Shown here in pieces: positions 2,900 to 30,099 of a DNA stretch of 44,747 bases. A model generated the notes under the pieces. The model was not told the DNA's origin. It ran no database searches and saw nothing but the letters and a program-made list of their open reading frames with translations. Location: sequence record PP069512; one strand, written 5' to 3'. The position numbers and the translations under genes are program-made. Position 1 is the stretch's first letter; each line of letters opens with the position of its first letter. Source of the stretch: Escherichia phage TR3.

Positions 2900-2910
2900 A
2901 AGGAAAATAT

Positions 2911-3570
2911 ATGGCCCATCTCAGCAATGGCACCCAGGTCTTCGTAGAGGGCACTAGGGGTAATACTATCGACGTAACAGCAATTACCAATGCTGTTGCT
3001 CCTGTTTTAACTTTGTCCGACGCCACAGGTATTGCGCGCGGGGATTACCTGCTGTTCACCAGCTCAGCTTCAACACTTCTGGCTGATAAGCAAGTTCGTG
3101 TCACTGCGGTATCTGGTTCGGACGTAACTGTTGAAGGTATTGATACCTCCAACAACACTAAGTTTCCAGCCGGTTTAACTGGTGAAGTAGTTAAGATTCT
3201 TAGCTGGTTTGAAGTTCCTTGTGTTCAGGATGTATCCACTGACGGCGGCGAACAGCAGTTCGTTAACTTCCAGTGTTTATCTGATGACCGCGAGCAAAAG
3301 ATTCCAACCTATAAGTCTGCGGTAACTAACACCTACACGTTCGCGCACGAATACACCAACCCGGTATATCCGATTCTGCGTAACTATGATGAGTCTGGTC
3401 AGGTTGTTGCTATCCGTCTGTTCGTGCCTCGCGCTAGTGAGATGCGACTTCAGTCTGGCACTATCTCTTTCAACGACACCCCGAGCATTGGTGTTAACGA
3501 AATCGAAACGGTATCCATCGCGGTATCCATCCGTGGTAGGCTGAGTTCTGTGGCTTCTGAGCTAGTATAA
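2911..3570 (+). CDS. major tail protein
   Basis: 219 aa; position between neck genes and tail chaperone; RBS AAGGA; followed by strong terminator. Confidence 0.7.
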   Translation: MAHLSNGTQVFVEGTRGNTIDVTAITNAVAPVLTLSDATGIARGDYLLFTSSASTLLADKQVRVTAVSGSDVTVEGIDTSNNTKFPAGLTGEVVKILSWFEVPCVQDVSTDGGEQQFVNFQCLSDDREQKIPTYKSAVTNTYTFAHEYTNPVYPILRNYDESGQVVAIRLFVPRASEMRLQSGTISFNDTPSIGVNEIETVSIAVSIRGRLSSVASELV

Positions 3571-3575
3571 AATTA

Positions 3576-3597
3576 ACCCTCTTCGGAGGGTTTTTTA
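3576..3597 (+). terminator. intrinsic terminator after major tail gene
   Basis: CCCTC-TTCG-GAGGG hairpin then TTTTTTATT. Confidence 0.7.
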
Positions 3598-3600
3598 TTG

Positions 3601-3644
3601 ATAGCACTTTTTGTTAAAGACGTGTGGCAGGGATTTGCTATTAT
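3601..3644 (+). promoter_or_regulatory. phage promoter box (ATAGCACTTT-TTGTTA, 22-bp spacer, TATTAT)
   Basis: Box at 3601-3616; -10-like TATTAT at 3639-3644; member of repeated motif family. Confidence 0.5.
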
Positions 3645-3683
3645 TACTTTATCGAAACGAGATGGATTATAGAGGTAAGCAAA

Positions 3684-3824
3684 ATGATTTTAATTGGTAT
3701 GCTGACCGCTTTTTTCTATTATGCTACAGGTCTAACCTTTTGGGTATCATTAGGTGCAGCCATAGGCACTTACTTCGTATCTGCTGTGCTTGCTTTAATT
3801 GTGATAGCGCTGCGTAATCGCTAA
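3684..3824 (+). CDS. small membrane protein (46 aa, two hydrophobic segments)
   Basis: ATG 3684 with RBS GAGGT 8 nt upstream; hydrophobic composition; track ORF 3624 has no RBS. Confidence 0.45.
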   Translation: MILIGMLTAFFYYATGLTFWVSLGAAIGTYFVSAVLALIVIALRNR

Positions 3825-3842
3825 AACGAGAGAGAAAACAAA

Positions 3843-4091
3843 ATGAACAACGTTAAAAATATCATCAAACTTACTGCTGCTCTTGGTGCTTTCTACCTGG
3901 CAATTCAGATTGTCAACCCAACTGGTGGCGCAACCGCAAACTCTGATGCAATAAAGTATGAACATGAATTTAATAGTGCATATTCGCATTGTGAAAAAGT
4001 AGCTGGCGATAAGACAAACCAGATTCTGCACTATGGTCGCGAAGTGTGCACCGAAGTTGCTCACAACATTGTAAAAAACGAATCAAAGTAA
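3843..4091 (+). CDS. small protein with N-terminal signal-peptide-like segment (82 aa)
   Basis: Hydrophobic N-terminus LTAALGAFYLAIQIV; two Cys; sits in an insertion between major tail and chaperone genes. Confidence 0.5.
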   Translation: MNNVKNIIKLTAALGAFYLAIQIVNPTGGATANSDAIKYEHEFNSAYSHCEKVAGDKTNQILHYGREVCTEVAHNIVKNESK

Positions 4092-4126
4092 TATAATCAT
4101 TCAACATAAACAAAGGAGATAACGAG

Positions 4127-4441
4127 ATGGCAAAATTCAAACTTTCACTTAAGGCGCTTCCTGACTTTAAACTTCCAGTTAAGTTTCAGCTTGCGAATGG
4201 AGAGGACGCAGAAGTAGTCTTAACAGTTAAGCACAAGAAATCATCTGAGTTACAGGAGATTCTTAATCGTGAAAACTTCAGCACTAAGGAATTGATTAGC
4301 GAAATCTGCTCTGACTGGGATTTAGAAGAACCATTTAACGATGAGAACGTCGATGAGTTTGCAAACCTTTTCCCTGGTGCAGTTCCATCGCTAATGGATA
4401 GCTACATGAAAGCACTTGCAGGGCAGCGAGTAAAAAACTAA
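4127..4441 (+). CDS. tail assembly chaperone (lambda gpG-like)
   Basis: Acidic 104-aa protein between major tail and tape measure genes; RBS AAGGAG; slippery site at its 3' end. Confidence 0.7.
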   Translation: MAKFKLSLKALPDFKLPVKFQLANGEDAEVVLTVKHKKSSELQEILNRENFSTKELISEICSDWDLEEPFNDENVDEFANLFPGAVPSLMDSYMKALAGQRVKN

Positions 4442-4755
4442 AACGCGCAGTATACTTACAATACCAGTCACCGCCAACGGATGCCGAACTCGAAGCTATC
4501 GGAATGAAACGTTCCGATTATGAAGGTGAGGAGCCTGAAGAGTTACACTTCGATGAAACAATGATGCAAAGCTGGGATGTGTACTGTGCTATGTCGACAC
4601 AATGGCGAGTAGGTGCTTGCGGTGCCACAGGCCTTGATTATAATTGCCTTCCATTCTTGTTCAAAGTCTATAAAATAGATGATGAAGAAATGGTACTTAA
4701 CGATATCAGAATACTTGAGGCTAAAGCCTTAGATATGATGAACGCCAAGAAATAG
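4127..4755 (+). CDS. tail assembly chaperone G-T fusion via programmed -1 frameshift (4127..4437 joined to 4438..4755)
   Basis: Heptamer A_AAA_AAC at 4432-4438 in the G frame; -1 frame open 4402..4755 with no RBS for ATG 4504. Confidence 0.6.
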
Positions 4756-4778
4756 CCATCCTTCGGGGTGGCTTTTTT
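4755..4778 (+). terminator. intrinsic terminator / attenuator before tape measure gene
   Basis: GCCATCC-TTCG-GGGTGGC hairpin then TTTTTTATT, abutting the tape measure RBS. Confidence 0.5.
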
Positions 4779-4792
4779 ATTATGGAGACAAT

Positions 4793-7765
4793 ATGGCAAC
4801 TAACGAAATTGCTGGTATCACGCTAGCCGTCGACGTCGCTCAGGTCGATAAGGGTACGCAATCATTACAGAAATTCAGGCAAGCAAACGAGCAAGCTGCA
4901 ACGGGAATCAATAGCTTCATCAACGCCGAGCTTGTAGCCAAGACTCAAGCAAGGGACACTGCAAGGCAGCTTGAGGAACAGCGCAAATCTTTCGCATCAC
5001 TTCAGAAAGCCATAGACCCAACTGCCGCTAAATTCCAGAAGTTGCAGAAGGCAGCAACTGAATTAGACAAAGCATTTGAATCTGGGATAGTTCCTGATGA
5101 AGAATTCTTCAGGCTTGGCTCTGTTATTGAAACTCAAATCAATAAGCTCAACAGGTCTAAAGCTGCTCTTAGCGAGGAAGGTCGGGCTGCACTCCAGGCA
5201 TCAATAGACAAAGAAAAGGCAACAGCAGCGGCGCAAAAGTTCATTCAATCTCTTGAGAACGAGGCGAATGCAGCAAGCCTTACAAGGACTGAACTGCTTC
5301 AGCTTAAGGCTGCTCAGCTAGGGGTTAGTGACCAAGCTGCGCCTATTATCGACAGGATTGGTAAGGCTGCCGAGGCATCTGCTATTCAGTTGCAGAAGCA
5401 GAGTTCCGCTTTTCTTAAGTCAGGTTTAAGCGCCGGTCAGTACAAGCAAGCGATTCGCCAGCTACCCGCTCAGATTACAGATATCGGAACTTCCCTTGCT
5501 AGCGGCATGCCAGTCTGGCTTGTTGCAATCCAACAGGGTGGGCAGATTAAGGATAGTTTTGGCGGTATTGGAAATACAGCAAGGTTTGCACTGGCAGCCA
5601 TTAACCCATTAACAGCAGTTGTTGGGACTCTAGGCCTGGCTCTTGGCGCTTTGGGTGTTGCGGCTTATCAGGCCGATAAGAATGCTCGAGGACTAGCATC
5701 TACGATAACGTTGGTTGGCAACTCAACTATCACGTCTACAGCGCAGATAAATCAGGTTGTTGATGGAATTGAGAGATCAACACTAGCTACTCGCGGACTT
5801 ATTCAGGAAATAGCCAATAGCCTTGTGGCAAACGGAAACCTAACTCTTACGCAGATAGACAAGATAACTAAGGCAACAGCGCAGTGGGCGGCAGTAACAT
5901 CAACCGATTCAAAGACCATTCTCGGGTACTTTGACCAAATTACAAAAGACCCTGTTAAAGGCCTTGCTGAGCTTGATAAGCAATTTAACTTCCTTCAAAG
6001 TGGGCAGTTAAAACACATAGAGAACTTAAGGAAGACAGCGGGAGAGACTGAGGCTGTAACAGCAGCTACTGAGTTATTTGCTAACGTTATGGAAAACAGG
6101 CTAGAAGATGTTGCACTAAGCCTCAATCCGCTAGAAAGTGCATGGAATAGCTTCAGGAAGTTTGTAAGTAATATTTGGGATGATATCGGCAAAAGGACAC
6201 TTGGTGCTCTTAACTTAATAACTGACGTTGTTGCTGGGACGATTGAGCAGATAAGGTCGTTCATAAACTCAGGCGACATTCTTCTTGGTGAATTTGCTAT
6301 CGCTGCAACCAAGACGCTTCAGTCAATCCCGGGACTTGGCGATTTAGGCAATGAAGCAATCGCTGAGCAGCAAAAGATTGTCGATGCTGCCAAGAAGCAA
6401 AACATTGAGTTAGCTAAAAGCATAGCTGAGCGAGACGCGAGAATCAGGAAGGGTGAGCTTGGTTATGTCGAGAGCAACAATAACACTAACCTGAGCGGGA
6501 ATAATGCATCAACAGATAAGGAGTTCGGAGCAAGGAAGAAAGCGCTAGCAGACGAGCTTGATGCAATAAAGAAATCGAGGAGCGAGAGGAATAAGGCAGT
6601 AAAAGAAGAAATGGATTTAACTTTATCTTATGAATCTGGTGTTCTTGCACTTCAGGCTCAGTTAAAGGCTTTGCAAGAGCATAGGACGATAAATGATGTA
6701 ATAAGTAACGAACGAAAGCAGCTATTCCAGGAAGAAGCTAAGTTTGCAATACTTGAACAAAGATATGCTGATGGTAGCCTGACTAAGTCTCAAGCCAAAC
6801 TGCTAGCGCAGAAGGATATCATTCTTGAGCAAGCTAAACAGAAGGCTGAACTTGGTGACCGAATCGTTCTTCAGGAGCGGTCAAACAAGTTACTTGATGA
6901 CAACCTTAAGAAGACAATACAGATTACCAATGAGGCGAAGAATGTTTCACTTGCTGCTGGTCTATCCGAAAGGGAGCGGCAAAGGGCAAGAGAACTTCAG
7001 GCGCTAGAGTCCAATCAGTTAAACAAAGGTGGATCTGTAGATGATGTTGATTTCCAGAATCTGCTGGAAGCAAGAAAAGAATACTACAGGCAGGAAGATA
7101 ACCTAAGGTCAGACTGGCAAGCTGGTGTAACTTCAACGCTTGCTGACTTAACTGAGAAGTACACTGACTTCAACCAAATTGCTAAGGATTTGACTGTCGC
7201 AGCTTTTGATGGAATTACCGACCAGATTACAAACCTTGTAACCACTGGTGAGACTAATTTCAGGGAGTTCACGGTAAGCATCCTCAAAATGATTGCGAAG
7301 ATTGCGACACAGCTTCTGATTGTTAAGGCTATTGAGTCAAGTTTGAGTAGCTTTGGTGGCACTGGCGGCGCAATTGGTTCAATTGGTAGTGCGCTTGGAT
7401 TTGCTGGCGGCGGCTACACTGGTGACGGTGGGAAGTATCAACCTGCTGGAACGGTGCACAAAGGTGAATTTGTTTTCACCAAAGAAGCAACCAACAGGAT
7501 TGGCGTTAAGAACCTGTACAAGCTGATGCGAGGTTATGCCAATGGTGGCGCTGTTGGTGGGCCTTCTGGCTATGCTAATGGTGGAGTTGTTGGCGGTACA
7601 AATGTTAATGTAAGCGGAATCACTGTTAACGTGAATTCTGGAATCGGTGGCGGTAATGATGCTAAGGCGATAGAATCTGGAGTCAAGGTTATCGTGGCTG
7701 AGGAAATCAGCAAGTCATTCCAGCAGGGTGGCAGGGCCTTTGCTTTCTTGCGAGGTTATAATTAA
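4793..7765 (+). CDS. tail tape measure protein
   Basis: 990 aa, Ala/Gln/Lys-rich coiled-coil character, Gly-rich C-terminus, position after G/GT chaperone. Confidence 0.9.
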   Translation: MATNEIAGITLAVDVAQVDKGTQSLQKFRQANEQAATGINSFINAELVAKTQARDTARQLEEQRKSFASLQKAIDPTAAKFQKLQKAATELDKAFESGIVPDEEFFRLGSVIETQINKLNRSKAALSEEGRAALQASIDKEKATAAAQKFIQSLENEANAASLTRTELLQLKAAQLGVSDQAAPIIDRIGKAAEASAIQLQKQSSAFLKSGLSAGQYKQAIRQLPAQITDIGTSLASGMPVWLVAIQQGGQIKDSFGGIGNTARFALAAINPLTAVVGTLGLALGALGVAAYQADKNARGLASTITLVGNSTITSTAQINQVVDGIERSTLATRGLIQEIANSLVANGNLTLTQIDKITKATAQWAAVTSTDSKTILGYFDQITKDPVKGLAELDKQFNFLQSGQLKHIENLRKTAGETEAVTAATELFANVMENRLEDVALSLNPLESAWNSFRKFVSNIWDDIGKRTLGALNLITDVVAGTIEQIRSFINSGDILLGEFAIAATKTLQSIPGLGDLGNEAIAEQQKIVDAAKKQNIELAKSIAERDARIRKGELGYVESNNNTNLSGNNASTDKEFGARKKALADELDAIKKSRSERNKAVKEEMDLTLSYESGVLALQAQLKALQEHRTINDVISNERKQLFQEEAKFAILEQRYADGSLTKSQAKLLAQKDIILEQAKQKAELGDRIVLQERSNKLLDDNLKKTIQITNEAKNVSLAAGLSERERQRARELQALESNQLNKGGSVDDVDFQNLLEARKEYYRQEDNLRSDWQAGVTSTLADLTEKYTDFNQIAKDLTVAAFDGITDQITNLVTTGETNFREFTVSILKMIAKIATQLLIVKAIESSLSSFGGTGGAIGSIGSALGFAGGGYTGDGGKYQPAGTVHKGEFVFTKEATNRIGVKNLYKLMRGYANGGAVGGPSGYANGGVVGGTNVNVSGITVNVNSGIGGGNDAKAIESGVKVIVAEEISKSFQQGGRAFAFLRGYN

Positions 7766-8185: not shown

Positions 8186-8941
8186 ATGGCAAGTGTAAAG
8201 TTTGAAAACCAACTTCAATCACTTTTCCCTGGTGAAGTGGTTACGCTTATTGAGGTTGATGGCAGCAAGTTCGGCGCAAGGGTTTACAGGTTTCATGGGG
8301 AGAATATCTCATACACGCCTGAAGAAATCATGCAAGCCCAGGCATCTGGTCAGCCACTACCAGCCAAGACAATTACATTTCGTGGCGAAGAGTATGGAGC
8401 CAGACCTTTCGGCATTAGCGGCATCAACCTTACATCTGATGGAAAAGCAAACAAGCTCACGCTAACTTTATCAAACGTTGACCAGGCTGTTTCCTCGCTA
8501 ATCCGTCAGTACAATGGCATGGTTCAGGCGAAGGTAACAATCTGGGTTACTATCAGGGATAATATCAATGATGATGGCAGCATTGCAGATGGCGATTATC
8601 GTAAGATGGTTTACTTTATTGAGCGTCCAAAGCAGGTTGACTACAAGACTGCCTCTTTTGAGTTATCTAGCCCAATTGATATGGATGGTATCTATATTCC
8701 AGCGAGGCTAGTCCAGTCAGTATGTTACTTTGCTTCTCGTGGATGGTATCGCAGTGGCAACGGTTGCGATTATGCTGGGAATCGCTACTTCGACAAAGAC
8801 AATAATCCGGTTGATGACCCTGGGTTAGATTTTTGCGCCGGAACTGTTGATGCCTGTAAGTTGAGGTTTGGTGAAAACAACCAGCTATCATTTGGGGGGT
8901 GTGCCTCCGCAAGTTTACAAGCTAAGAATAATCAGAACTAA
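8186..8941 (+). CDS. minor tail protein (lambda gpL-like)
   Basis: 251 aa; C-terminal Cys cluster (C..C..C..C) as in Fe-S containing gpL; gene order. Confidence 0.75.
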   Translation: MASVKFENQLQSLFPGEVVTLIEVDGSKFGARVYRFHGENISYTPEEIMQAQASGQPLPAKTITFRGEEYGARPFGISGINLTSDGKANKLTLTLSNVDQAVSSLIRQYNGMVQAKVTIWVTIRDNINDDGSIADGDYRKMVYFIERPKQVDYKTASFELSSPIDMDGIYIPARLVQSVCYFASRGWYRSGNGCDYAGNRYFDKDNNPVDDPGLDFCAGTVDACKLRFGENNQLSFGGCASASLQAKNNQN

Positions 8942-8983
8942 TAGCATTTTTTGATAAATACAAACTGCCAGGGATGGTATATA
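8941..8983 (+). promoter_or_regulatory. phage promoter box, variant (ATAGCATTTT-TTGATA, about 21-bp spacer, TATATA)
   Basis: Box at 8941-8956 overlapping gpL stop; -10-like at 8978-8983. Confidence 0.4.
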
Positions 8984-9013
8984 GTTACTTTACACAAACG
9001 ATAGGATACAGAA

Positions 9014-9223
9014 ATGAAAAGTAAATTTATTGAATGCGTAAGATCTAGCGAATACTGGAATTTGACTATTGGTGATATCTACACTTTAAATCTCGATGGA
9101 GATGAGTCAGAATTATTCATAAAAGATGACATGGGAACAAAGCTACACCTTGAATACCTTCCTGAGTCATCAATGCTAAGCTTAATTGCGGACCATGATT
9201 GTATTTTTACTCATATCGATTAA
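9014..9223 (+). CDS. hypothetical protein (69 aa), moron-like insertion between gpL and gpK homologs
   Basis: AT-rich island with its own promoter box and terminator; RBS AGGA. Confidence 0.5.
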   Translation: MKSKFIECVRSSEYWNLTIGDIYTLNLDGDESELFIKDDMGTKLHLEYLPESSMLSLIADHDCIFTHID

Positions 9224-9248
9224 AACAAAGCAAGATTAGTGTTAAACT

Positions 9249-9276
9249 AGGTCAATCGAGAGATTGGCCTTTTTTA
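9249..9276 (+). terminator. intrinsic terminator / attenuator
   Basis: AGGTCAATC-GAGA-GATTGGCCT hairpin then TTTTTTATTGGAG. Confidence 0.5.
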
Positions 9277-9287
9277 TTGGAGACAAA

Positions 9288-10034
9288 ATGCTAACACCAA
9301 AAGTTAAATTAGAAATCATGCGCCACGCCAAAGAGGATTACCCTAATGAATGTTGCGGAGTAGTAACCCAAAAAGGTATGGCTCAGAAGTACCATCGAAT
9401 CACTAACACATCTAAAGACCCTGAGAATGAATTCATTCTTGATGCCAGTGGGTACATGAAGATTAGCGATGAGGAGCGAGTTGTGTACATTGTCCACTCA
9501 CACACTGGGGATGGGGCCACCACCAGACCTAGTCCAGCAGATATATGCAGTTGCAATGAGTGCGAGATTCCTTATGTAATTGTTAGTTACCCTGAGGGTG
9601 ATATGCGAATCCTTGAGCCAGAGGACATGCCGTTAGCAGGAAGGCCGTGGGGTTTGGGTAGCTTTGATTGCTGGGGGTTGATTATGGCATTCCACGCAAA
9701 ACACGGCGTCAAACTGGCTGACTACCGCGTTAATTACCCGTGGTGGAACAAGGAGTATGGTGAAAATATATATGATGACAATTGGATTAAGGAAGGATTT
9801 GAGCTACTAGAAACTGATGATATTCCTGTTGGCTCCATGATTATGATGCAGATTCAAAGTGAGACCACGAATCACGCAGGAATCTATATTGGCGATAACA
9901 AATTCTTGCACCATCTTTACGGGAAGATGAGTAAAGTTGATACCTATAGTGATTATTGGCGCGAGCGTACGGTTCGCATTGTTCGCCACAAAGATTTACC
10001 AGAAGGAGCAAACTACAATGCAGAGACTGATTAA
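9288..10034 (+). CDS. tail assembly protein (lambda gpK-like; JAB/MPN + NlpC/P60 domains)
   Basis: JAMM-like motif HSHTGDGATTRPSPAD; C-terminal Cys/His region DCWGL...H; ATG 9288 with RBS GGAG (track start 9264 is TTG inside the terminator). Confidence 0.8.
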   Translation: MLTPKVKLEIMRHAKEDYPNECCGVVTQKGMAQKYHRITNTSKDPENEFILDASGYMKISDEERVVYIVHSHTGDGATTRPSPADICSCNECEIPYVIVSYPEGDMRILEPEDMPLAGRPWGLGSFDCWGLIMAFHAKHGVKLADYRVNYPWWNKEYGENIYDDNWIKEGFELLETDDIPVGSMIMMQIQSETTNHAGIYIGDNKFLHHLYGKMSKVDTYSDYWRERTVRIVRHKDLPEGANYNAETD

Positions 10035-13600: not shown

Positions 13601-13990
13601 ATTAGTCTTGGCCTGAAATACAATGGACAGACTTATTCATCCGGTATGAGCATGGAGCTTGTCGGCACTGGTGACAATGTTCGTAGTCAATTCATTTTTG
13701 ACGCAAACAGATTCGCTATCAGTAACGGCATTGGTTCCGGCTCCGGTCAGTGGCAACTCCCCTTCGTTGTCGAGAATGGAAACGTAATCATCAAGAGTGC
13801 AGTTATCGGCGATGGCTCAATCAGTAACGCGAAGATTGGTAACTTTATTCAGTCTAATGACTGGGGTACAAATTCAGGCTGGAGGCTAGATAAGGATGAT
13901 GGATTGACGCTTAGGGGTTCCGATCGTGGCAAGATGAGAGTCCTGGACCGGAATGGAGTGGTTAGGGTAAAATTAGGATACTTGGGTTAA
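10673..13990 (+). CDS. central tail fiber / host specificity protein (lambda gpJ-like)
   Basis: 1105 aa; follows M/L/K/I homologs; fibronectin-III-like middle region; C-terminal receptor-binding-type domain. Confidence 0.85.
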   Translation: MAQDIKIYGSKGGQPKQHQPVEQPDNLISVNKVKVLLAVSDGEVDNSFSLKDLYLADVPVQNQNGTYNYEGVTAEFRPGTQSQDYIAGLEGANSEVQVNREISNSTPYIIAVNNTQLSAIRVKLFWPRLIKQENNGDLNGTSCEYAIDLSVDGATYTEYTRGVANGKTTSGYDRSIRVNLPAEFSSALVRVRKITADSESSTLVNDMQITTYQEVIDAKFRYPLTALVYVEFSSDLFPNGIPTISIKKRWKLIRVPTNYNPETRTYSGTWNGTFKMAYSNNPAWVLYDLVTNQRYGLDQRELGITIDKWGLYEAAQFCDQMVPDGKGGMEPRYLCDVVIQQKVEAYQVIRDICSIFRGLTFYDGEQIGIVVDKPRQPSYVFTNDNVVDGLFNRTFGSDKSLYTVANVQFDDVENSYQQDVEPVFELEATRRFGYNPVDLTAIGCTRRSEANRRGRWLLKTNLRSETVSFTTGLEGMIPMIGEVIAVNDQAWSSNYTLNLSGRIESVSGLQVFVPFKIDAAAGDRILINKPDGMPEYRTIASVSEDGMTLQLNTAFSFTPQPDTVFAIDKENLALQQYVVTGIQKADSDGDDAFGYTITAVEYDPNKYDEIDYGVNIQDRPTSIVEPDTLLAPENVQVSSYSKVVQGLSVETMIITWDKVQYAKTYTVQWRKENGNWINVPRTANTEIDIEGIYAGIYDVRVRSVSDTENVSAWSGIVTVSLTGKIGRPSAPTVITASTDEVFGIRVKWGFPEGSGDTAYTELQQVPDNGDGTYNPDNASLLTLLPYPAYEYWHTPIQPGKVIWYRARLIDRIGNTSDWSNFARGMSTDDANIINDFIKVDIEGSEGFKYLEQNAIQKNQDIQNQAEAIIENALANDGDVRRMTKENGKRKAEYVQAVNLIADETQARVEALTALKAQIDDEVVASITEVQTALATETEARTTADTTLSARLGENEAALNQKLDAFSNATSTGVQYGISLGLKYNGQTYSSGMSMELVGTGDNVRSQFIFDANRFAISNGIGSGSGQWQLPFVVENGNVIIKSAVIGDGSISNAKIGNFIQSNDWGTNSGWRLDKDDGLTLRGSDRGKMRVLDRNGVVRVKLGYLG

Positions 13991-13999
13991 TAAATTATT

Positions 14000-14029
14000 G
14001 GCGGGTAAATCCCGCCTAAGGTTTTATTT
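14000..14029 (+). terminator. intrinsic terminator
   Basis: GGCGGG-TAAAT-CCCGCC hairpin then T-rich tract. Confidence 0.6.
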
Positions 14030-14031
14030 GT

Positions 14032-14403
14032 ATGACTGGTTTGTATGGTTGGGAGATGTACGATTCTGCGGGGCGGCTTGTAGCTGACAATAGCAGCATA
14101 ATGAGCAGGAGGCTATTCACTTATAGCGTGCCACTGATAAGGGCTTTATCTGCAAACATACCATGGGAAGTCTCATTTAATGTTAACTTCTCAAATGGAA
14201 CGCCTTATGCGCATTGCAATACCAGAACAGGGGTGGTGGTCCCTGCATCTACTAACTGGTATCCAGTATCACCTGATATAATAATATCTGGAAATGCAGT
14301 TACACTCAGGTATACAAACAGGCATGTTTCCTATCCGGACGATCTTGGGTACATACTTGCAGTTGGTGGTGTTGATGTTCACTTAGGAGTTTATAATAAA
14401 TGA
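14032..14403 (+). CDS. hypothetical protein (possible tail-fiber-associated)
   Basis: 123-aa ORF downstream of J in an AT-rich segment; no clear RBS, start uncertain. Confidence 0.4.
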   Translation: MTGLYGWEMYDSAGRLVADNSSIMSRRLFTYSVPLIRALSANIPWEVSFNVNFSNGTPYAHCNTRTGVVVPASTNWYPVSPDIIISGNAVTLRYTNRHVSYPDDLGYILAVGGVDVHLGVYNK

Positions 14404-15197
14404 GTGATTATGGTGTTGAACTAATAAATGACTATGGTTTAAAGGTTGCTGACGCAGAGGATGTAAATTACGTACTAAGAAGTTCTGGTACATTTAATGA
14501 TTCAAATTTCTACTCATATGCAAACTCCACATCTGCAATTAGCCTCATGACCACAGGAATGAATTCGCCTCTTCTATTTCTAAAGATGAACGAAAGTAGG
14601 TCAAGGATAAGCCAGAAGCCTGGAGTTAACAAAATATCACCTGATTTTGTTAACCCAAATACCACAATAACAAAGACAAGCATAGACCTATTCAAGTGGT
14701 GGAACATACCGCTAGGAACTGTAGAGTATTACATATTTGACAAGTGGATCCCGCCAGAAAGAAGTGATTATGGAATGCAGATATTTAATGAATCTGGTTC
14801 TATAATCTTTGATTCTGGCTGGTACTTCCTCAAACTTAGGGATGTGCTATGGCTTGATCCAAGTTATCCAAACCATTCAGATCAGGAAGGTGGTAGTAAC
14901 TGGACTAACGTCGGGAATATTGTCAACTCCGCGAACGTATCAAACTCAGCATTATCAATGCCTGTTGGTAGGGGGTGGGTTGAAACATCATTGCAGGGTG
15001 GGTACTACTATAATGAATGCTGTCACCTTGACTCATCCGGTAATCTATTTATATCCATAATACCTACAGGTATATACCTTGATGTTTCACCAACTGGCGG
15101 CTGGGTTGGCAATATGAGGACGCAAGTTATGGTTTGCGACACCTCGAGGCTGCCTCTTAATTACAATCCAGTTGAGATAAGAAAGGAAAACAAATAA
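14400..15197 (+). CDS. hypothetical protein (265 aa, possible receptor-binding accessory)
   Basis: ATGA overlap with upstream ORF; RBS AGGAG; AT-rich, Asn/Ser/Tyr-rich. Confidence 0.5.
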   Translation: MSDYGVELINDYGLKVADAEDVNYVLRSSGTFNDSNFYSYANSTSAISLMTTGMNSPLLFLKMNESRSRISQKPGVNKISPDFVNPNTTITKTSIDLFKWWNIPLGTVEYYIFDKWIPPERSDYGMQIFNESGSIIFDSGWYFLKLRDVLWLDPSYPNHSDQEGGSNWTNVGNIVNSANVSNSALSMPVGRGWVETSLQGGYYYNECCHLDSSGNLFISIIPTGIYLDVSPTGGWVGNMRTQVMVCDTSRLPLNYNPVEIRKENK

Positions 15198-15201
15198 AAA
15201 T

Positions 15202-15220
15202 AAGGCCCTTAATGGGCCTT
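15202..15220. terminator. bidirectional terminator between convergent genes
   Basis: AAGGCCC-TTAAT-GGGCCTT hairpin flanked by A-tract and T-tract; contains stop codon of lipoprotein gene. Confidence 0.6.
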
Positions 15221-15394
15221 CTTGTTAAAACAATATCCAGCTGGTAAAACCGAATAAAGATTTTGATTTACCTCTCCATTGCTGTATTCACAACCTCTAA
15301 TTGTAACTGAGTAGTCACTGATAAGAACTATAGTTCTTTCACCGCCTGAACAACCAGCTAAAATCATTGCAGTGATAACGATTAATTTTTTCAT
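15209..15394 (-). CDS. small lipoprotein (candidate Cor/Llp-like superinfection exclusion protein)
   Basis: Signal peptide with lipobox LAGC (MKKLIVITAMILAGCSGG); 3 further Cys in 46-aa mature part; next to receptor-binding genes. Confidence 0.6.
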   Translation of the reverse strand: MKKLIVITAMILAGCSGGERTIVLISDYSVTIRGCEYSNGEVNQNLYSVLPAGYCFNKKAH

Positions 15395-15395
15395 C

Positions 15396-15500
15396 TTAGA
15401 ACCCTTTAAAGTTGCTAGCCAGCATCAGAAGCCATACGAAGAAACCAGTAGCTGCTACACCGAAGATTGCAGAGATTACGTTAGTAGTTAAGTTAGTCAT
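15396..15500 (-). CDS. small single-pass membrane peptide (34 aa)
   Basis: Not in ORF track; MTNLTTNVISAIFGVAATGFFVWLLMLASNFKGF; RBS AAGGA 7 nt upstream; its stop abuts lipoprotein start. Confidence 0.45.
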   Translation of the reverse strand: MTNLTTNVISAIFGVAATGFFVWLLMLASNFKGF

Positions 15501-15583
15501 TTTGTATTCCTTAGTAAGTGTGTTTCGTTTCGATGGAAAGATAATACCGCATCCTTGCGATAAGTGTTTAGCAATTAGTGCTA

Positions 15584-15853
15584 TTAGTGAATATCCTCAC
15601 AGCCAGGAATGGACTTAACATTGTAATGCCGATAAGCGAATATCAAGTTAAGAGCCTGCTCGACCGTGCATTTAAGGGCGCCAGAGATAATAAATGAAGA
15701 CTCAGTGATGTGATTTATTAACTCATTTCTGACAGGGTCGTCATCTGCTAGTAACTCTGCGCGCTTAACAAAAAGAGCGTTGTTTACCAGGATTGTCACA
15801 ACCTTTTCATTGAGCTCTTTCTTCGCTTTTGCAATCTCTTTCTCGTAGTTCAT
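15584..15853 (-). CDS. hypothetical protein (89 aa), first gene of leftward lipoprotein cassette
   Basis: ORF with AAGGCGG-like RBS. Confidence 0.5.
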   Translation of the reverse strand: MNYEKEIAKAKKELNEKVVTILVNNALFVKRAELLADDDPVRNELINHITESSFIISGALKCTVEQALNLIFAYRHYNVKSIPGCEDIH

Positions 15854-15995
15854 CTTATACCGCCTTGTTTTCGATTTGCATTACGCTATTAACTGACATC
15901 ATAACATTCCGATTCTGCTGCTGAGTAGTGGTTACTACATGCTGCATTTTATTGCAGTCACTTTAAATGACCACATCTTATTGTGGTCATTAGTG

Positions 15996-16685
15996 CTACT
16001 TATCTTTAAGTAGCAACTTGATATCAATTCCTAGATTATTCTCAATCAATCCAGTCAGTGCACCTACCTTTTCCTTAAGTGCGAAGCACTGTGTTTCATA
16101 CTTGAATCTCAACTCCATCTCATCAGAGCGACTTGACCAGCACTGCCGAGCCTCGCACGCTAGCTCATCAATCTTCTTGTCAAGTTCCTTATCTGACAGG
16201 GTGATTTCAGTAATTCGCTGCTCAGCTACGATTCTCTGGATCAAGTGAGCATTCTGCGCTTGCAGGTATCCATTCTTCATTCTTTCCTCTTTAAGTTCAT
16301 CAATGCTTACCATCTGACTGATTACTTCCGCTTGCTTGTTGATGGTGCTTTGCATTTCTTTAAGCTTAGCAAGCACTGCGCGACGAACGAACTTTGATTC
16401 TCTCATCCCAATCAAAAGCATCTGTTCCATATTGAGCACTGGTGAGTTGATTGACTTTCTATAACCTCCTCTACCCTCACTCTTGATTACGAAACTTTCG
16501 TAGTCAAACTCAAACCCTTCAAGCTCATCCTCTATTCTCTCAACAAAGTCATTGTGTCGAACATTGGACTCCCCAGCGATCAACATCGCTGGGTTGATAA
16601 CTTCATTTAAAAACTGATAACTATTCATTTTTACGTCTTCATTAAGTAATGCTAAGTTCATTTTCGTCTCTCTTTTGTTTTTCAT
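15996..16685 (-). CDS. hypothetical regulatory-like protein with coiled-coil C-terminus (start may be 16661)
   Basis: 229-aa ORF downstream of promoter box at 16791-16810; function not recognisable. Confidence 0.55.
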   Translation of the reverse strand: MKNKRETKMNLALLNEDVKMNSYQFLNEVINPAMLIAGESNVRHNDFVERIEDELEGFEFDYESFVIKSEGRGGYRKSINSPVLNMEQMLLIGMRESKFVRRAVLAKLKEMQSTINKQAEVISQMVSIDELKEERMKNGYLQAQNAHLIQRIVAEQRITEITLSDKELDKKIDELACEARQCWSSRSDEMELRFKYETQCFALKEKVGALTGLIENNLGIDIKLLLKDK

Positions 16686-16765
16686 TCCTAAGATTTGAGG
16701 AGTTAACTAAGTTCTTTTCCTCAATTTGAGGAGGAGTTGACAGCACCATTGCCGCCACGCGCCTA

Positions 16766-16810
16766 AATATACCTAAAGATAGCCAGTTGTCTTTAGCAAA
16801 TCGTGCTATT
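16766..16810 (-). promoter_or_regulatory. phage promoter box (minus strand), 22-bp spacer, TATATT
   Basis: rc of 16791-16810 = AATAGCACGATTTGCTAAAG; -10-like rc of 16766-16771. Confidence 0.5.
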
Positions 16811-16839
16811 TATCGACAATTTCACCATAAATCACAGTT

Positions 16840-17001
16840 ACACGTAACCGATGTAACTCGATGTATACAATCTCATCCGCGGGAAATGATATACGCGCTG
16901 TTACGCCAATTTACGCATTGGTTACATTAAAATATCTATATATATCAACCTTTTACTCTTATTATTATTATTATATATATTACTGTGTATATCATGTAAC
17001 T
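16840..17001. repeat. non-coding control element, copy A (ACACGTAACCG box, GTTACGC repeats, (ATT)5(TA)4 microsatellite, TCATGTAACT)
   Basis: Paralogous to 34915..35070 with conserved spacing (152 vs 146 bp between the two anchor boxes). Confidence 0.6.
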
Positions 17002-17229
17002 ACTTCTATAGAGTGTTCCGGTTATAATTTTAATATCATGTGGATTTATACAGTATTGCGCGGCAGCTATACCAATGCACCCTCAGCGAGAAACGGCATA
17101 CACGATATACACGATGTTTACATTGAGCTATGGCTGGCTTGAGATGCCAAAAAGCGTAACTAGTGCCAATGCCTACACGAAATTACAAAGATTCACGCGT
17201 AAACTTAAATCAACGATTGGCAAAACCAA

Positions 17230-17257
17230 TTGGACTGGTTACGGTGCTGAATATATA
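17230..17257 (+). promoter_or_regulatory. candidate sigma70 promoter (TTGGAC-N16-TATATA)
   Basis: Canonical spacing; about 40 nt upstream of ATG 17297. Confidence 0.35.
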
Positions 17258-17296
17258 GTTACCTCATCGAAAGCAATCAACCAGAGAGATATATAA

Positions 17297-17491
17297 ATGA
17301 CCTACTACATTATCAAAGAGAAAAACAACGCACTGTTCGGCGACTGCTACTTTGGAGGAGAGGCCGGTTACACCACGGATAAGAACGAAGCAGACAGATT
17401 CGAGACCAAAGGAGAAGCCCGCGATGTACTGACCGGTTACTTCACTGAAGAAGATTTGAAGTCTGTTAAAGTAGTTAAGGTCAAGGGGTGA
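17297..17491 (+). CDS. hypothetical protein (64 aa)
   Basis: First ORF of rightward recombination operon. Confidence 0.5.
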   Translation: MTYYIIKEKNNALFGDCYFGGEAGYTTDKNEADRFETKGEARDVLTGYFTEEDLKSVKVVKVKG

Positions 17492-17494
17492 GTT

Positions 17495-18460
17495 ATGAGC
17501 TTTAAAGTTTTTACGCGAGAGGAGCTAAGCAACGAGGCTTACCACGCTGAAACTGAACACATCTCAGGTAGCTCGCTTGTCGAGATTATCCAGGGATCAC
17601 CAGCCAAGTGGAAGTTTAAGCAGCGCAACAATGATAGCAAGGCGCTTAAGTTCGGCACGCTAAGCCACACGATGATTTTAGAGCAAGATGTATTCGAAAA
17701 AGAATACCTTCGCGCAACAGACCTTGACTCGATTGAAGGCTTAATTACAAGTCAGTCTGGATTATCATCAGCACTTAAAAAAGTTGGTGTAGCTGGCACG
17801 TCAGGTAAGGGGTATAGCGAGCTTATAGAGATGATGTATCGATCTGGTGAGGATTGGCCCGTTGGATGGTTAATTGAGCAGCAGGAGAGCGCCCAGGCGC
17901 TTGCGGATGGTAAGGAGCTAGTTAGCGCAGTAGACTATGACAAGGTTGTAGCGATGCGTGAGGTCCTCTGCAACATTCCGGCGTATAATGCGATCGTGAA
18001 CAGTAAGACGGCGCAGAAAGAGTTATCGATCTTCGGTGAGATTCTAGGAGTCGGCGTTAAGATTCGAATTGACCACGTTGATGTTGTTGATGGAGCAGTT
18101 CGGATCACAGATTACAAAACGACAGCAGACGCAAGCCCGGAAGGATTCGGTAAGTCAGCATTCAACCACGGATACCTTGCAAAAATGGCACTTCAGCGTG
18201 ATCTGTTTGTGAAAGCATTCAACGAGAAGCGCAAGGTTGTTGTGGGGTTGCTGGCACAGGAGAAGGTGGAGCCATACTTACCAATGCTGTACACCCTAAC
18301 TGACGAACAGCTTCGCATTGGTCGTCTCCAGTATCTTGAGGCACTTGCCACTTACAAGAAGTGCAAGGAGCTAGATATCTGGCCTGGGTACTCGAACGGC
18401 ATAACAGAGCAAGAACTACTAGTCCCTGAGTGGGCTCTAAAGCAATACAAAGAAATCTAA
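17495..18460 (+). CDS. PD-(D/E)XK exonuclease (RecB/RecE-like)
   Basis: Motifs RIDHVD ... ITDYKTT (D...D/E-x-K); adjacent to Erf-type annealing protein. Confidence 0.7.
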   Translation: MSFKVFTREELSNEAYHAETEHISGSSLVEIIQGSPAKWKFKQRNNDSKALKFGTLSHTMILEQDVFEKEYLRATDLDSIEGLITSQSGLSSALKKVGVAGTSGKGYSELIEMMYRSGEDWPVGWLIEQQESAQALADGKELVSAVDYDKVVAMREVLCNIPAYNAIVNSKTAQKELSIFGEILGVGVKIRIDHVDVVDGAVRITDYKTTADASPEGFGKSAFNHGYLAKMALQRDLFVKAFNEKRKVVVGLLAQEKVEPYLPMLYTLTDEQLRIGRLQYLEALATYKKCKELDIWPGYSNGITEQELLVPEWALKQYKEI

Positions 18461-18504
18461 ACAGCACGAATTGCTAAAACAAAACGGGATGACTTAGGTA
18501 TAGT
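18461..18504 (+). promoter_or_regulatory. phage promoter box (ACAGCACGAATTGCTA, 22-bp spacer, TATAGT)
   Basis: Box 18461-18476; -10-like 18499-18504. Confidence 0.5.
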
Positions 18505-18533
18505 TATCCAATCAACAACGAACGAGGTTAAAG

Positions 18534-19184
18534 ATGCAAATTTCAGAATTATGCAAATCAATTTTAAAAGCGCTTCACACTGCTAAATCGCTATTTGCGA
18601 AGGCTGAAAAGTCTAAGCAGAACTCTCACTTAAAGAATAAATACGCTACCTTAGAAGACGTTTTGGCGGCTGTTGAGCCTGGTTTATATGAGTGTGGTTT
18701 GGTGATGTTCCAGAGTGTGATTGATGACGAACAAACAAATCGCATGAAGGTCGAGACAAAGCTGTTTCATGTTGAATCTGGAGAGTGGGTAAGCTTCTTA
18801 ATGATAGTCCCAATCAGCAAGAATGATGCACAAGGTTACGGATCAGCTTTAACATACGCTCGTCGCTACGGTATCACAGCTGCCTTGGGTCTTAGCCAGG
18901 CTGATGATGACGGAAATCTTGCAGCCAAAGGCGTTAAGGATTTCAAGCGAGAGCTAGAGAAATGCAATACTCTTGATGAACTTCGTAACGTCTGGAAAGA
19001 GGCTAAGCAGTCACTTGATGCGGCTGGATGGAAGGTGTTTGAGCCTTACATTATCGAGCGAAAAGCAGAGATTGAGGCAAATGCAGCAACTGGCTTCAAC
19101 CCAGCAACACCAAAGAAAGTTGCAGAAAAAAGTAGTACTACTGAAAAGATTGAAGTAGAATCACAACAAATCGACACATTCTAA
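18534..19184 (+). CDS. ERF-family single-strand annealing protein
   Basis: Motif GSALTYARRYG typical of Erf family; RBS GAGGT. Confidence 0.8.
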   Translation: MQISELCKSILKALHTAKSLFAKAEKSKQNSHLKNKYATLEDVLAAVEPGLYECGLVMFQSVIDDEQTNRMKVETKLFHVESGEWVSFLMIVPISKNDAQGYGSALTYARRYGITAALGLSQADDDGNLAAKGVKDFKRELEKCNTLDELRNVWKEAKQSLDAAGWKVFEPYIIERKAEIEANAATGFNPATPKKVAEKSSTTEKIEVESQQIDTF

Positions 19185-19227
19185 ATTAAGCGGGGATTCG
19201 TCCCCAACAAAACAGAGAGAGATAACA

Positions 19228-19647
19228 GTGCACGTAATTACTGGTCAGATTCGCAAAGCACCATTCACCAAAGAAGGCAGCAACAACAACGGACGTTGGA
19301 AAATGTACGCAGTAGAACTTTCTGAACGAATGAAGATTCGAAATCAGAATGGCGAGGATGAGACTGTTTACAGTAACTACCGCGCTACGTTCTTCGCAAA
19401 GGAAAATGTCATGGCATGGTATGACGAAGCGTTCCAGGAAGGTAAGGTGGTCTCTATTTCGTCCGATACGTTACACATTACGGCGCGTGATCATAACGGA
19501 ACTACATACACAACAGCGGAGCTTATCCGCCCTCAGTTGCAATTCAGCCAGCGCGAGCCAGCACAACAGCAGCCTCAGCAACAACAGCAGCAACCTCAGC
19601 GGTCACCGCAGCAGCAAAAACAATTCGATGACGACATTCCATTCTAA
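19228..19647 (+). CDS. ssb: single-stranded DNA-binding protein
   Basis: C-terminal acidic tail DDDIPF preceded by Gln/Pro-rich linker; GTG start (uncertain). Confidence 0.75.
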   Translation: MHVITGQIRKAPFTKEGSNNNGRWKMYAVELSERMKIRNQNGEDETVYSNYRATFFAKENVMAWYDEAFQEGKVVSISSDTLHITARDHNGTTYTTAELIRPQLQFSQREPAQQQPQQQQQQPQRSPQQQKQFDDDIPF

Positions 19648-19659
19648 TGATAAAACTAA

Positions 19660-19685
19660 CCCCGCCTCCGCGGGGTTTTTGTTTT
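19660..19685. terminator. bidirectional terminator
   Basis: CCCCGC-CTCC-GCGGGG hairpin then TTTTTGTTTT; tailspike stop lies in the T-tract. Confidence 0.7.
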
Positions 19686-22248: not shown

Positions 22249-22271
22249 TGTGTAAAGTCTCCATATGTAAA

Positions 22272-22317
22272 ATAGCACGAATTGCTAAAGTGGATTGTAG
22301 CATCTTTCAGGTATAAA
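22272..22317 (+). promoter_or_regulatory. orphan promoter box on + strand between two leftward genes
   Basis: ATAGCACGAATTGCTAAAG at 22272-22290; TATAAA at 22312-22317 (24-bp spacer); no downstream + strand gene. Confidence 0.35.
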
Positions 22318-22321
22318 AAAA

Positions 22322-22335
22322 CCTCCCGAAGGAGG
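22322..22335 (-). terminator. terminator of primase gene (minus strand)
   Basis: CCTCC-CGAA-GGAGG hairpin with A-tract on + strand; abuts primase stop. Confidence 0.55.
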
Positions 22336-23310: not shown

Positions 23311-23318
23311 CCCATTCT

Positions 23319-28640: not shown

Positions 28641-28684
28641 ATAGCACTTTTTGTTAAGAAATCCCAGAGAAATCTGGGTATATT
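28641..28684 (+). promoter_or_regulatory. phage promoter box (ATAGCACTTT-TTGTTA, 22-bp spacer, TATATT)
   Basis: Spacer holds hairpin CCCAGA-GAAA-TCTGGG. Confidence 0.5.
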
Positions 28685-28714
28685 AATCAAACACAAACGA
28701 GATGGTAAACAAAA

Positions 28715-29263: not shown

Positions 29264-29312
29264 ATAAAATCAATGGGGTTTTAAATGGCCCCATTAAAAT
29301 TGAGTAAATAAA

Positions 29313-29925: not shown

Positions 29926-30099
29926 ATGACTAAACTATACTGCGTGAAAAACAACTCAAAGACGCTTCCGTTTACTGAGAATCAGCCATACAGCGGCGAG
30001 CATCTTGGTAGCGGTTACTACAAGATTTATGGCGACGATATGACTCACATCCTTGCGCCGATTGATGGCTCTTTGGTGGAATTTATTATCGCAGATTAA
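29926..30099 (+). CDS. hypothetical protein (57 aa)
   Basis: Not in track; RBS AGAGGA 8 nt upstream; followed by strong terminator. Confidence 0.45.
   Translation: MTKLYCVKNNSKTLPFTENQPYSGEHLGSGYYKIYGDDMTHILAPIDGSLVEFIIAD

Follow-up and report, generated by a model that had tools for sequence, protein, structure and literature searches.

Layout of the two islands

The tail operon of Escherichia phage TR3 (sequence record PP069512) carries two small islands, at 3601-4091 and 8941-9277 of the 44,747-nucleotide (nt) stretch of DNA analysed here, which is referred to as the window. An earlier note, made from the sequence alone, had described them as moron-like insertions, each with its own promoter box, that encode envelope-targeted small proteins, and all the features that it had listed for both islands are present where it had placed them. 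The comparison with related phages favours, at a probability of about 0.55, the view that each island occupies a cargo slot of the tail operon with a conserved regulatory frame, inside which unrelated small genes are exchanged.

Island 1 occupies the first of these slots, between the genes for the major tail protein and the G-like tail assembly chaperone, and comprises two open reading frames (ORFs), of 46 and 82 amino acids (aa), together with the signals around them:

3575-3597 (+), intrinsic terminator after the major tail gene, a UUCG tetraloop stem with a T-run (-11.1 kcal/mol, z -2.8)
3601-3619 (+), box ATAGCACTTTTTGTTAAAG of slot 1, covering roughly -50 to -32 of the putative promoter
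3636-3644 (+), extended -10 element TGC-TATTAT (TGnTATTAT), read from the sequence at the position of the TAnnnT hexamer of the box copies
3651-3664 (+), conserved leader ATCGAAACGAGATG, which follows many of the box promoters
3684-3824 (+), orf46, 46 aa, with a GAGG ribosome-binding site 8 nt 5' of its ATG
3843-4091 (+), orf82, 82 aa, with a Sec-type signal peptide by inspection
4069-4097 (+), promoter-like sequence of the sigma-70 type, TTGTAA-17-TATAAT, across the 3' end of orf82

The match at 4069-4097 could possibly provide the chaperone and tape-measure genes with another promoter, and a promoter has been annotated at the equivalent place in phage CEB_EC3a. Fold computation on the stretch from orf82 to the chaperone gene found neither a hairpin nor a terminator (0 kcal/mol). 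Island 1 thus lacks the end signal of a closed transcription unit, and transcripts that start at the box would run into the chaperone and tape-measure genes. The guanine-cytosine (GC) content of the island, at 37.5-40.5%, is lower than that of the major tail gene (45-50%), yet it is similar to that of the chaperone gene downstream. Altogether, three components make up island 1: a regulatory junction that is resident, an accessory gene long present in the subfamily and a single recent insertion.

Island 2 lies in the second slot, between the L-like and K-like tail genes, and has a simpler layout:

8941-8959 (+), box ATAGCATTTTTTGATAAAT of slot 2, whose first base is the last base of the L stop codon
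8980-8985 (+), -10 hexamer TATAGT, at the fixed spacing to the box
9014-9223 (+), orf69, 69 aa, an acidic ORFan
9249-9276 (+), intrinsic terminator (-14.3 kcal/mol, z -4.7)

Judged by these predicted elements, slot 2 forms here a closed promoter-ORF-terminator unit, and island 2 is moron-like in form. Its GC content is 33-35%, compared with 41-49% in the flanks.

Slot 1 across relatives

The gap between the major tail and chaperone genes is regulatory and measures only 75-110 nt in T1 (Tunavirinae), AHS24 (Rogunavirinae), damhaus (Tempevirinae) and NJR15 (Webervirus). Since the flanking tail genes are adjacent in T1 and in three other Drexlerviridae subfamilies, both islands are additions. The claim that the islands interrupt the tail gene order is thereby borne out, the flanks being contiguous in T1, AHS24, damhaus and NJR15 for slot 1, and in T1 and ES for slot 2. 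In line with a moron-like nature, the contents of the islands vary among close relatives, and the small genes are not core tail components in all relatives.

Within the Braunvirinae, slot 1 is never empty. Members of the orf82 family were found there in 81 records, to which 4 divergent ACG-M12-type records can be added, and the chaperone was recovered at an identity of at least 60% in around 89 records (around 90 Braunvirinae). The description of island 1 as an insertion thus holds for orf46, which is recent, but not for orf82, which is not sporadic and sits in the same slot in around 85 of around 90 Braunvirinae records. By this distribution, orf82 is an old, near-ubiquitous accessory gene of the subfamily.

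Other occupants of slot 1 are lipoproteins. Rtp, AugustePiccard, MM01 and RobRod40 carry at this place the 128-aa lipoprotein Rtp34, with an LLAGC lipobox (5 records, as Rtp was deposited twice), and TR1, a Christensenvirus like the phage of the window, carries another lipoprotein of 126 aa with an LTGC lipobox. These two proteins (Rtp 3139-3525 and TR1 2284-2664) are 32% identical, and each has two further conserved cysteines. No match to a family of known function was found for either of them in Pfam, PHROGs, NCBIfam or PADLOC. It can also be observed that rtp34 is a second, uncharacterised lipoprotein gene of Rtp, besides the gene for the known exclusion protein Rtp45.

The terminator, the box and the leader are kept whatever the cargo in ES, IMM-001, phiA2-1, Rtp, TR1 and ACG-M12. 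This conservation of the frame regardless of the cargo indicates that the promoter is a property of the slot and not of the gene. With regard to the cargo itself, all slot 1 proteins of the Braunvirinae are predicted to be directed to the periplasm or the membrane.

The genes of slot 1

The signal peptide of orf82 was judged by inspecting an alignment of the family and not by a dedicated predictor. It consists of a basic n-region, MNNVKNIIK (+2), a 15-residue h-region, LTAALGAFYLAIQIV, and a c-region, NPTGGATA, in which NPTG acts as a helix breaker, A-T-A or A-D-A occupies positions -3 to -1, and the A32/N33 junction is invariant. The protein is thus predicted to be secreted or to be anchored in the membrane on the periplasmic side. 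The mature part, of about 50 aa, contains two invariant cysteines, Cys50 and Cys69. In an AlphaFold2 (AF2) model of moderate confidence, with a predicted local distance difference test score (pLDDT) of 67.6, helices span residues 2-24, 30-54 and 57-81, with a helical hairpin at 30-81; no viral structure matched it at E<=0.001, a hairpin at pLDDT 68 being uninformative. At the level of sequence, orf82 belongs to phrog_22925 (E=2.4e-28), a family annotated as being of unknown function, and a profile search of 1.84 billion representatives for remote homologues returned solely its own 50% cluster.

The ratio of non-synonymous to synonymous substitution rates (dN/dS, or omega; Nei-Gojobori) of orf82 is 0.20-0.31 in several pairs, with 0.07 for the major tail protein and 0.01 for the chaperone as a comparison. 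The constraint is concentrated at the N-terminus (omega 0.06, with saturated dS), while the mature part has a dN of 0.56, as opposed to 0.21 for the neighbouring chaperone. A constrained N-terminus combined with a fast-evolving mature part is typical of secreted effectors under diversifying pressure. A minus-strand ORF of 89 aa that overlaps orf82 was rejected as a gene, its reading frame being broken in relatives.

The second slot 1 gene, orf46, is not annotated in the GenBank records of TR2, CY1 and Rao1. Its product is hydrophobic almost throughout (grand average of hydropathy, GRAVY, 1.53), with a GAAIG motif and a C-terminal RNR, and is predicted to be an inner-membrane peptide, either a two-helix hairpin or a single span with the N-terminus outside. 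It weakly matches phrog_16572 (E=1.2e-4). At slot 1, it was found by tblastn only in the window, TR2, CY1 and Rao1, as well as in two Logan contigs with the same context, and it forms one cluster among 5.8 billion proteins. It is missing from more than 80 other relatives as well as from ES and IMM-001, the closest relatives that lack it, in which orf82 directly follows the box promoter. Such a distribution marks orf46 as a recent addition to slot 1.

The sole other homologue of orf46 is GP45 of phiA2-1 (89% aa identity), which lies behind another box, right after an SbcD-like gene, and is followed by two DUF7244 (SH3-clan) genes and then by a holin-endolysin-spanin cassette. In the window, the box after the SbcD-like gene is followed instead by genes for a polynucleotide kinase (PNK) and an ATPase. 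The sequence common to both orf46 loci extends from the -10/leader region to ATGAACAACGTTAAA, which forms the opening 15 nt of both orf82 and the gene after orf46 in phiA2-1. These shared junctions point to a transfer of orf46 by recombination, which would have used the box/leader region at the left and the 15 nt of ATGAACAACGTTAAA at the right.

As a side observation, the region 3' of the SbcD-like gene is a third box-framed cargo slot, at 28641-29867 of the window and 2923-3340 of phiA2-1, which holds in the latter the orf46 homologue and an extra DUF7244 paralogue. The copies of orf46 in CY1 and Rao1 (6785-6925 in both) differ from that of the window by two changes each, all of them non-synonymous and none synonymous, a sample too small to interpret; one of the CY1 changes is Ile41Arg, within the hydrophobic segment, in genomes that are otherwise near-identical. 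The +1 frame over orf46 was considered as a gene and rejected, given that it is open in the window and phiA2-1 but its start codon is not conserved.

Between the window and phiA2-1, the dN/dS of orf46 is 0.23. Including orf69, for which the value is given below, the three small ORFs are real genes under purifying selection (dN/dS 0.19-0.31). No paralogues of orf46, orf82 or orf69 were found elsewhere in the window or in T1.

A putative promoter box common to the family

The 19-nt box that precedes both islands occurs 7 times in the window at 3 mismatches or fewer, compared with 0.04 copies expected, at positions 3601, 8941, 16809(-), 23805, 28641, 34722(-) and 38898, and all seven copies have the orientation of the gene downstream. 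T1 contains 11 copies, where 0.01 would be expected. In an exact-match scan of viral contigs, the matches listed were mostly in contigs of around 40-53 kb, often with several boxes per genome. These data show that the box is a motif common to the whole family Drexlerviridae.

A hexamer of the TAnnnT type is found 19-20 nt past nearly every copy of the box, often with a TG upstream, and a leader of the form AAACGAGA(G/T)G follows about 12 nt beyond the hexamer at many copies. The TTGNTA of the box lies 21-23 nt, mostly 22 nt, from the -10 hexamer. This spacing is too long for the box to serve as a -35 element; it spans instead positions of about -50 to -32, which would be the placement of an UP element or of an activator site. 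A generic sigma-70 scan misses the box promoters because they have no canonical -35 element. The box sequence was not found in any paper, and keyword searches of the literature on Drexlerviridae promoters and transcriptomes gave nothing relevant.

In this light, the statement of the earlier note that each island has its own promoter box needs to be qualified: a box and a -10 hexamer do precede both islands, but the box is a family-wide motif, and the frame is conserved whatever the cargo.

Slot 2 and its cargo

The L and K genes overlap in T1. In ES they are 13 nt apart, and the 347-nt insert of the window replaces precisely this stop-to-start spacer. Slot 2 is empty in IME542, TR1 and others, and where it is filled, its contents are diverse. 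Rao1, IME253 and phiA2-1 carry in it a Rha-type gene on the opposite strand with a TTGACA-17-TATATT promoter of its own, Rtp and DTL carry an HNH endonuclease gene, and AugustePiccard and ACG-M12 carry unrelated ORFs of 105 aa and 117 aa, respectively. In ACG-M12, AugustePiccard and Rtp, a box is found ahead of the cargo. Furthermore, the terminator, of the form …GTGTTAAACTAGGTCAATCGA.AG.TTGGCCTTTTTTATTGGAGA…, is near-identical in the window, ACG-M12 and AugustePiccard, whose cargo genes are unrelated. The terminator that had been noted for island 2 is indeed a strong one (9249-9276), but as it is common to unrelated cargo in other phages, it probably belongs to the frame of the slot and not specifically to orf69.

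The orf69 product has an isoelectric point (pI) of 4.4 and a net charge of -9. No transmembrane segment or signal peptide was found in it, and it is predicted to be a soluble cytoplasmic protein. The argument for an envelope or exclusion function is not applicable to a protein that is soluble and acidic; thus, the proposal that the islands encode envelope-targeted small proteins fits island 1, with orf46 and orf82, and fails for island 2.

In slot 2, orf69 was found only in TR2, CY1 and one Logan metagenomic contig (77% aa identity), and it forms two clusters among 5.8 billion proteins. Homologues with about 40% identity are found in Kagunavirus-type phages, amid small hypothetical genes of a non-structural region. 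Its dN/dS is 0.19, from the comparison of the window with the 77%-identical metagenomic homologue. No family match was obtained in Pfam, PHROGs, NCBIfam or PADLOC, and the AF2 model (pLDDT 57) was too poor for a fold search. Two possible relationships were tried and rejected: a divergent DUF7244/SH3 protein (hhalign probability 0.9%, with DUF7244 absent from its Pfam matches), and a relative of the slot 2 cargo of ACG-M12 (BLASTP gave no alignment).

Comparison with known systems

In their regulatory frames, the slots resemble the promoter/stem-loop (PeSL) cassettes, which mediate the shuffling of ORFs in T4-type phages (Arbiol 2010, PMC2839356; also PMC4122927). As in these cassettes, a repeated conserved promoter motif and stem-loop terminators flank small ORFans, with the stem-loop at 3575-3597 upstream and that at 9249-9276 closing the unit. 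The insertions, deletions and replacements among close relatives fall at the motifs, in three slots (between the major tail and chaperone genes, between L and K, and after the SbcD-like gene), and the cargo gene orf46 follows one copy of the motif in the window and a different copy in phiA2-1. Nonetheless, the motif differs in sequence and belongs to another phage family, the slots described here are in an essential tail operon whereas the PeSL cassettes are in hyperplastic early-gene regions, some of the box copies of T1 are inverted relative to the operon, and the promoter and terminator activities of the frames are here predictions from the sequence.

With regard to position and cargo, the closest parallel to island 1 is the moron of HK97, gene 15, whose neighbours on either side are the chaperone and tape-measure genes. 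Its product, the superinfection-exclusion protein gp15, is a small protein of the inner membrane that imposes a tail-dependent block on DNA entry (Juhala 2000; Cumby 2012; reviewed in PMC3594210). In both siphophages, small accessory coding DNA of lower GC content, which relatives lack, lies next to the chaperone and tape-measure genes in the tail operon; both encode small envelope proteins with a conserved hydrophobic N-terminal segment and a divergent C-terminus. The differences are also considerable. Neither orf46 nor orf82 has sequence similarity to gp15/YebO, and no Pfam family, YebO included, matched at E<=1. Moreover, orf82 looks cleaved and secreted, not membrane-anchored, no terminator closes island 1, and the promoter in front of it is a motif resident in the family. 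The phage of the window is virulent, so that no expression from a prophage takes place, and exclusion is only presumed here.

The virulent phage T4 makes two small proteins, Imm and Sp, that are located in the inner membrane or exposed to the periplasm and guard the infected cell against secondary DNA injection. The slot 1 proteins, encoded by a virulent phage as well, resemble them in their small size and predicted location. However, no sequence or fold similarity to orf46 or orf82 can be detected, and the T4 genes are early genes, while orf46 and orf82 are in the tail operon.

In the family of the window phage, receptor blocking is carried out by lipoproteins encoded beside the receptor-binding genes, namely Rtp45, which acts on LptDE (PMC12685063), and Cor (PMC13164509). 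The Cor/Llp/Rtp45 proteins of T1, T5 and Rtp (PMC12685063, PMC9586334, PMC13164509) are, as is predicted for the slot 1 cargo, small periplasm-facing proteins with disulfides that act on the envelope, and the alternative slot 1 cargo of Rtp and TR1 also consists of lipoproteins. Unlike them, orf82 and orf46 have no lipobox; the first cysteine of orf82 is at residue 50, and orf46 has none. In addition, island 1 is upstream of the tape-measure gene, around 10 kb from the receptor-binding genes at 14032-15197.

A lipoprotein gene is found close to these receptor-binding genes. It lies at 15209-15394 (-), encodes 61 aa with an ILAGC lipobox and further cysteines, and is convergent with the two receptor-binding-type genes at 14032-15197 (+), downstream of the J-like gene. 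This ORF is a likely candidate for an exclusion lipoprotein of the Cor/Llp/Rtp45 type, and would fill the receptor-blocking role more plausibly than slot 1.

The proposed cargo slots, their possible function and the alternatives

In the cargo-slot reading, the frame of slot 1 would be formed by the terminator of the major tail gene, followed by the box and the leader, and that of slot 2 by the box, the cargo and the terminator. The repeated box and leader would most likely act as recombination homology, in the way of the PeSL cassettes of T4-type phages. Both orf46 and orf82 would be transcribed from the box promoter, on a transcript that goes on into the chaperone and tape-measure genes. Their products would act at the inner membrane or in the periplasm of the infected cell, where they would most likely hinder the entry of incoming phage DNA, a function that would complement the receptor-blocking outer-membrane lipoprotein encoded beside the receptor-binding genes. 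In slot 2, orf69 would most likely act on a cytoplasmic host or defence target.

The comparison with relatives supports the architecture of the slots well. A role of the slot 1 proteins in superinfection exclusion at the periplasm or inner membrane, comparable to that of HK97 gp15 or T4 Imm/Sp, can be proposed only tentatively. More speculative still is the broader proposal that slot 1 holds a new class of periplasmic effectors (orf82-type proteins, Rtp34- and TR1-type lipoproteins, and orf46), which might provide a second, post-adsorption layer that would exclude other phages or protect DNA entry, be matched to the ejection apparatus of the same phage and be co-expressed with the chaperone and tape-measure genes, with the box as a Drexlerviridae-wide, PeSL-like mobile element that would both drive and shuffle the cargo. 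On the whole, the islands are a new instance of a known organisation of accessory genes, that of morons and of PeSL-type shuffling, and their cargo is fairly ordinary.

Several observations weigh against the cargo-slot reading or against the function attached to it. Searches of Pfam, PHROGs, NCBIfam and PADLOC assigned neither orf82 nor orf46 to any family with a known function, the viral library gave no matching fold, and nothing ties either of them to exclusion. The phage is virulent, and the logic of classical morons, based on a benefit to the prophage, is consequently not applicable. The promoter activity of the box is deduced from its architecture alone, and its part in recombination is deduced from the shared junction sequences. 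The spacer between the box and the -10 element in the window is unlike those of ES and phiA2-1, which blurs the left junction of orf46. Moreover, T1 and damhaus have the box of the major-tail/chaperone gap in the opposite orientation to the genes; in T1, both boxes within the structural operon are inverted, at 15086(-) and 18850(-), one of them being the box of this gap. Such inverted copies may represent a regulator-binding site or an antisense promoter instead of a simple forward promoter. The neighbours of orf46 in phiA2-1, namely the lysis cassette and the DUF7244 genes, hint at a part in lysis instead.

The relationship between the cargo and the receptor was also considered. Bas01 and Bas02 both use LptD as their receptor (PMC8594841). 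The slot 1 cargo of Bas01 is of the Rtp34 type, and that of Bas02 is of the orf82 type. The two phages share LptD yet differ in their cargo, which argues, on very few data points, that the slot 1 cargo does not track the outer-membrane receptor, and this too counts among the points against. A cargo that is independent of the receptor favours in turn a post-adsorption role in the periplasm or at the inner membrane for orf82 and orf46.

The interpretation closest to the earlier note is that of classical autonomous morons, in which each island would have arrived from outside as a self-contained promoter-ORF-terminator unit, encoding envelope proteins for exclusion or host modification. Island 2 has much of what this predicts, with a promoter, one ORF and a terminator, a GC content of 33-35% and a clean stop-to-start indel with respect to ES; homologues of orf69 are present in an unrelated phage genus, and more than 80 relatives lack orf46. 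Notwithstanding, the box and the terminator are shared slot frames around different Braunvirinae cargo, these frames have so far been seen only in Drexlerviridae, and the box is a resident motif throughout the family. As island 1 is also not closed by a terminator, as orf82 occurs almost throughout the subfamily and as orf69 is not targeted to the envelope, this origin is considered unlikely. It is quite unlikely, in turn, that the slot 1 genes serve the timing of lysis, although this is the main functional rival: orf46, and possibly orf82, would be membrane and periplasmic proteins that serve as antiholins or modulate the holin, analogous to T4 RI, and would act on a system with a pinholin, a signal-anchor-release (SAR) endolysin and a u-spanin. 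In phiA2-1, the only copy of orf46 outside the tail operon immediately precedes two DUF7244 genes and the holin-endolysin-spanin cassette, an auxiliary part in lysis has been suggested for DUF7244 (PMC13164509), and the Ala/Gly-rich N-terminal segment of orf82 is moderately hydrophobic (15-residue Kyte-Doolittle mean 1.9) and thus loosely SAR-like. In the window, however, both genes are in the tail operon, around 26 kb from the lysis genes, and neither of them resembles a known holin or antiholin in family and fold searches; the lysis role of DUF7244 is itself a hypothesis, and the canonical AxA cleavage motif of orf82 suggests secretion and not a releasable anchor.

It is improbable that the small ORFs are neutral or selfish passengers without adaptive function, carried along by recombination at the repeated boxes. 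The extreme rarity of orf46 and orf69 (1 and 2 clusters among the 5.8 billion proteins), the existence of close relatives that lack these ORFs with no obvious consequence, and the changes of orf46 in CY1 and Rao1, all of them non-synonymous and including an Ile-to-Arg replacement in the hydrophobic segment, would be expected of passengers, but all three ORFs show purifying selection (omega 0.19-0.31), orf82 has kept its invariant cysteines and signal peptide across a deep divergence, and slot 1 is never found empty in the Braunvirinae. Least probable is a role as components of tail assembly or of the virion, in which case the gene order would not be truly interrupted. Such a role would agree with the fixed position of orf82 in nearly all Braunvirinae and with the co-transcription with the chaperone and tape-measure genes that read-through would imply, and the slot 2 cargo of ACG-M12 has been annotated as a virion structural protein by similarity to phiEB49 gp37. 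Nevertheless, exported proteins are unfit for tail assembly in the cytoplasm, and orf82 has a Sec signal peptide, orf46 being a membrane peptide. Four other Drexlerviridae subfamilies have homologous tails but nothing in slot 1, the place that unrelated lipoproteins hold in Rtp and TR1, and most relatives lack orf69, which is itself unrelated to the ACG-M12 cargo.

The T1-like phages are of interest as model coliphages, as contaminants in laboratories and fermentations, and as candidates for therapy, and around half of their small ORFs are without an assigned function. Exchangeable slots framed by boxes, even within an essential tail operon, offer a concrete and testable mechanism for the mosaicism of the family. 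Additionally, orf46 represents a real membrane-peptide gene that was previously unannotated, and orf82 and its lipoprotein alternatives are candidates for new envelope-level functions in exclusion or in the control of lysis. If they are functional, the cargo genes would constitute a layer of phage-phage competition beyond the receptor blockers Cor, Llp and Rtp45; if they are not, they would reflect the ordinary flux of accessory genes.

Genomic setting and other features

The window is a near-complete Christensenvirus genome (Drexlerviridae; Braunvirinae) of a T1-like siphophage, around 98% identical to phage TR2. A megablast search with 2900-4800 found Escherichia phage TR2 to be 100% identical over this part, with CY1 and Rao1 at 99.7-99.8%. 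The records of TR2 and CY1 are classified as Drexlerviridae; Braunvirinae; Christensenvirus, and the lineage given for Rao1 stops at Viruses. Over the whole window, BLAST against TR2 showed 98-100% identity apart from 13857-23322. This block, which is replaced or only around 80% identical with respect to TR2, takes in the receptor-binding locus along with the end of the J-like gene and some of the recombination/replication region, and its divergence suggests that the receptor specificities of the window phage and TR2 are probably different. T1-like phages are virulent. No integrase was found among the annotated products of TR2, although no full search for lysogeny genes was made.

The genes around the islands form a lambda-like tail module, which also includes M-like, I-like and J-like genes. 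The members that flank or follow the slots are the following:

2911-3570 (+), major tail (tube) protein gene (PF08813, E=7.7e-67; phrog_584), left flank of slot 1
4127-4441 (+), G-like tail assembly chaperone gene, the G-part (PF08748, E=1.3e-32), right flank of slot 1
4504-4755, T-part of the chaperone, named 'TfmS' in relatives (DUF1799)
4793-7765, tape-measure gene
8186-8941 (+), L-like minor tail protein gene (PF05100, E=4.8e-44), left flank of slot 2
9288-10034 (+), K-like tail tip gene with JAB and NlpC/P60 domains (PF14464, PF00877), right flank of slot 2

The start of the K-like gene is most likely the ATG at 9288 rather than the mechanically assigned TTG at 9264, as indicated by the alignment with ES. 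The 'TfmS' ORF is open in the -1 frame from 4402 and runs over the last part of the chaperone gene, where an AAAAAAC heptamer forms a slippery site at 4432-4438. In view of this, 4402-4755 is the T-part of the usual G/GT programmed-frameshift arrangement and not a separate gene.

No known RNA families were found by Rfam within either island. The sole Rfam match in the window is a tRNA gene at 37980-38052 (+), and the TR2 block that aligns there has an annotated tRNA-Arg(CCT). Finally, a standalone DUF7244 (SH3-clan) gene is present at 29926-30099, upstream of the holin-endolysin-u-spanin cassette, and the same layout of a DUF7244 gene before the lysis cassette was recently described in T1-like phages (PMC13164509).

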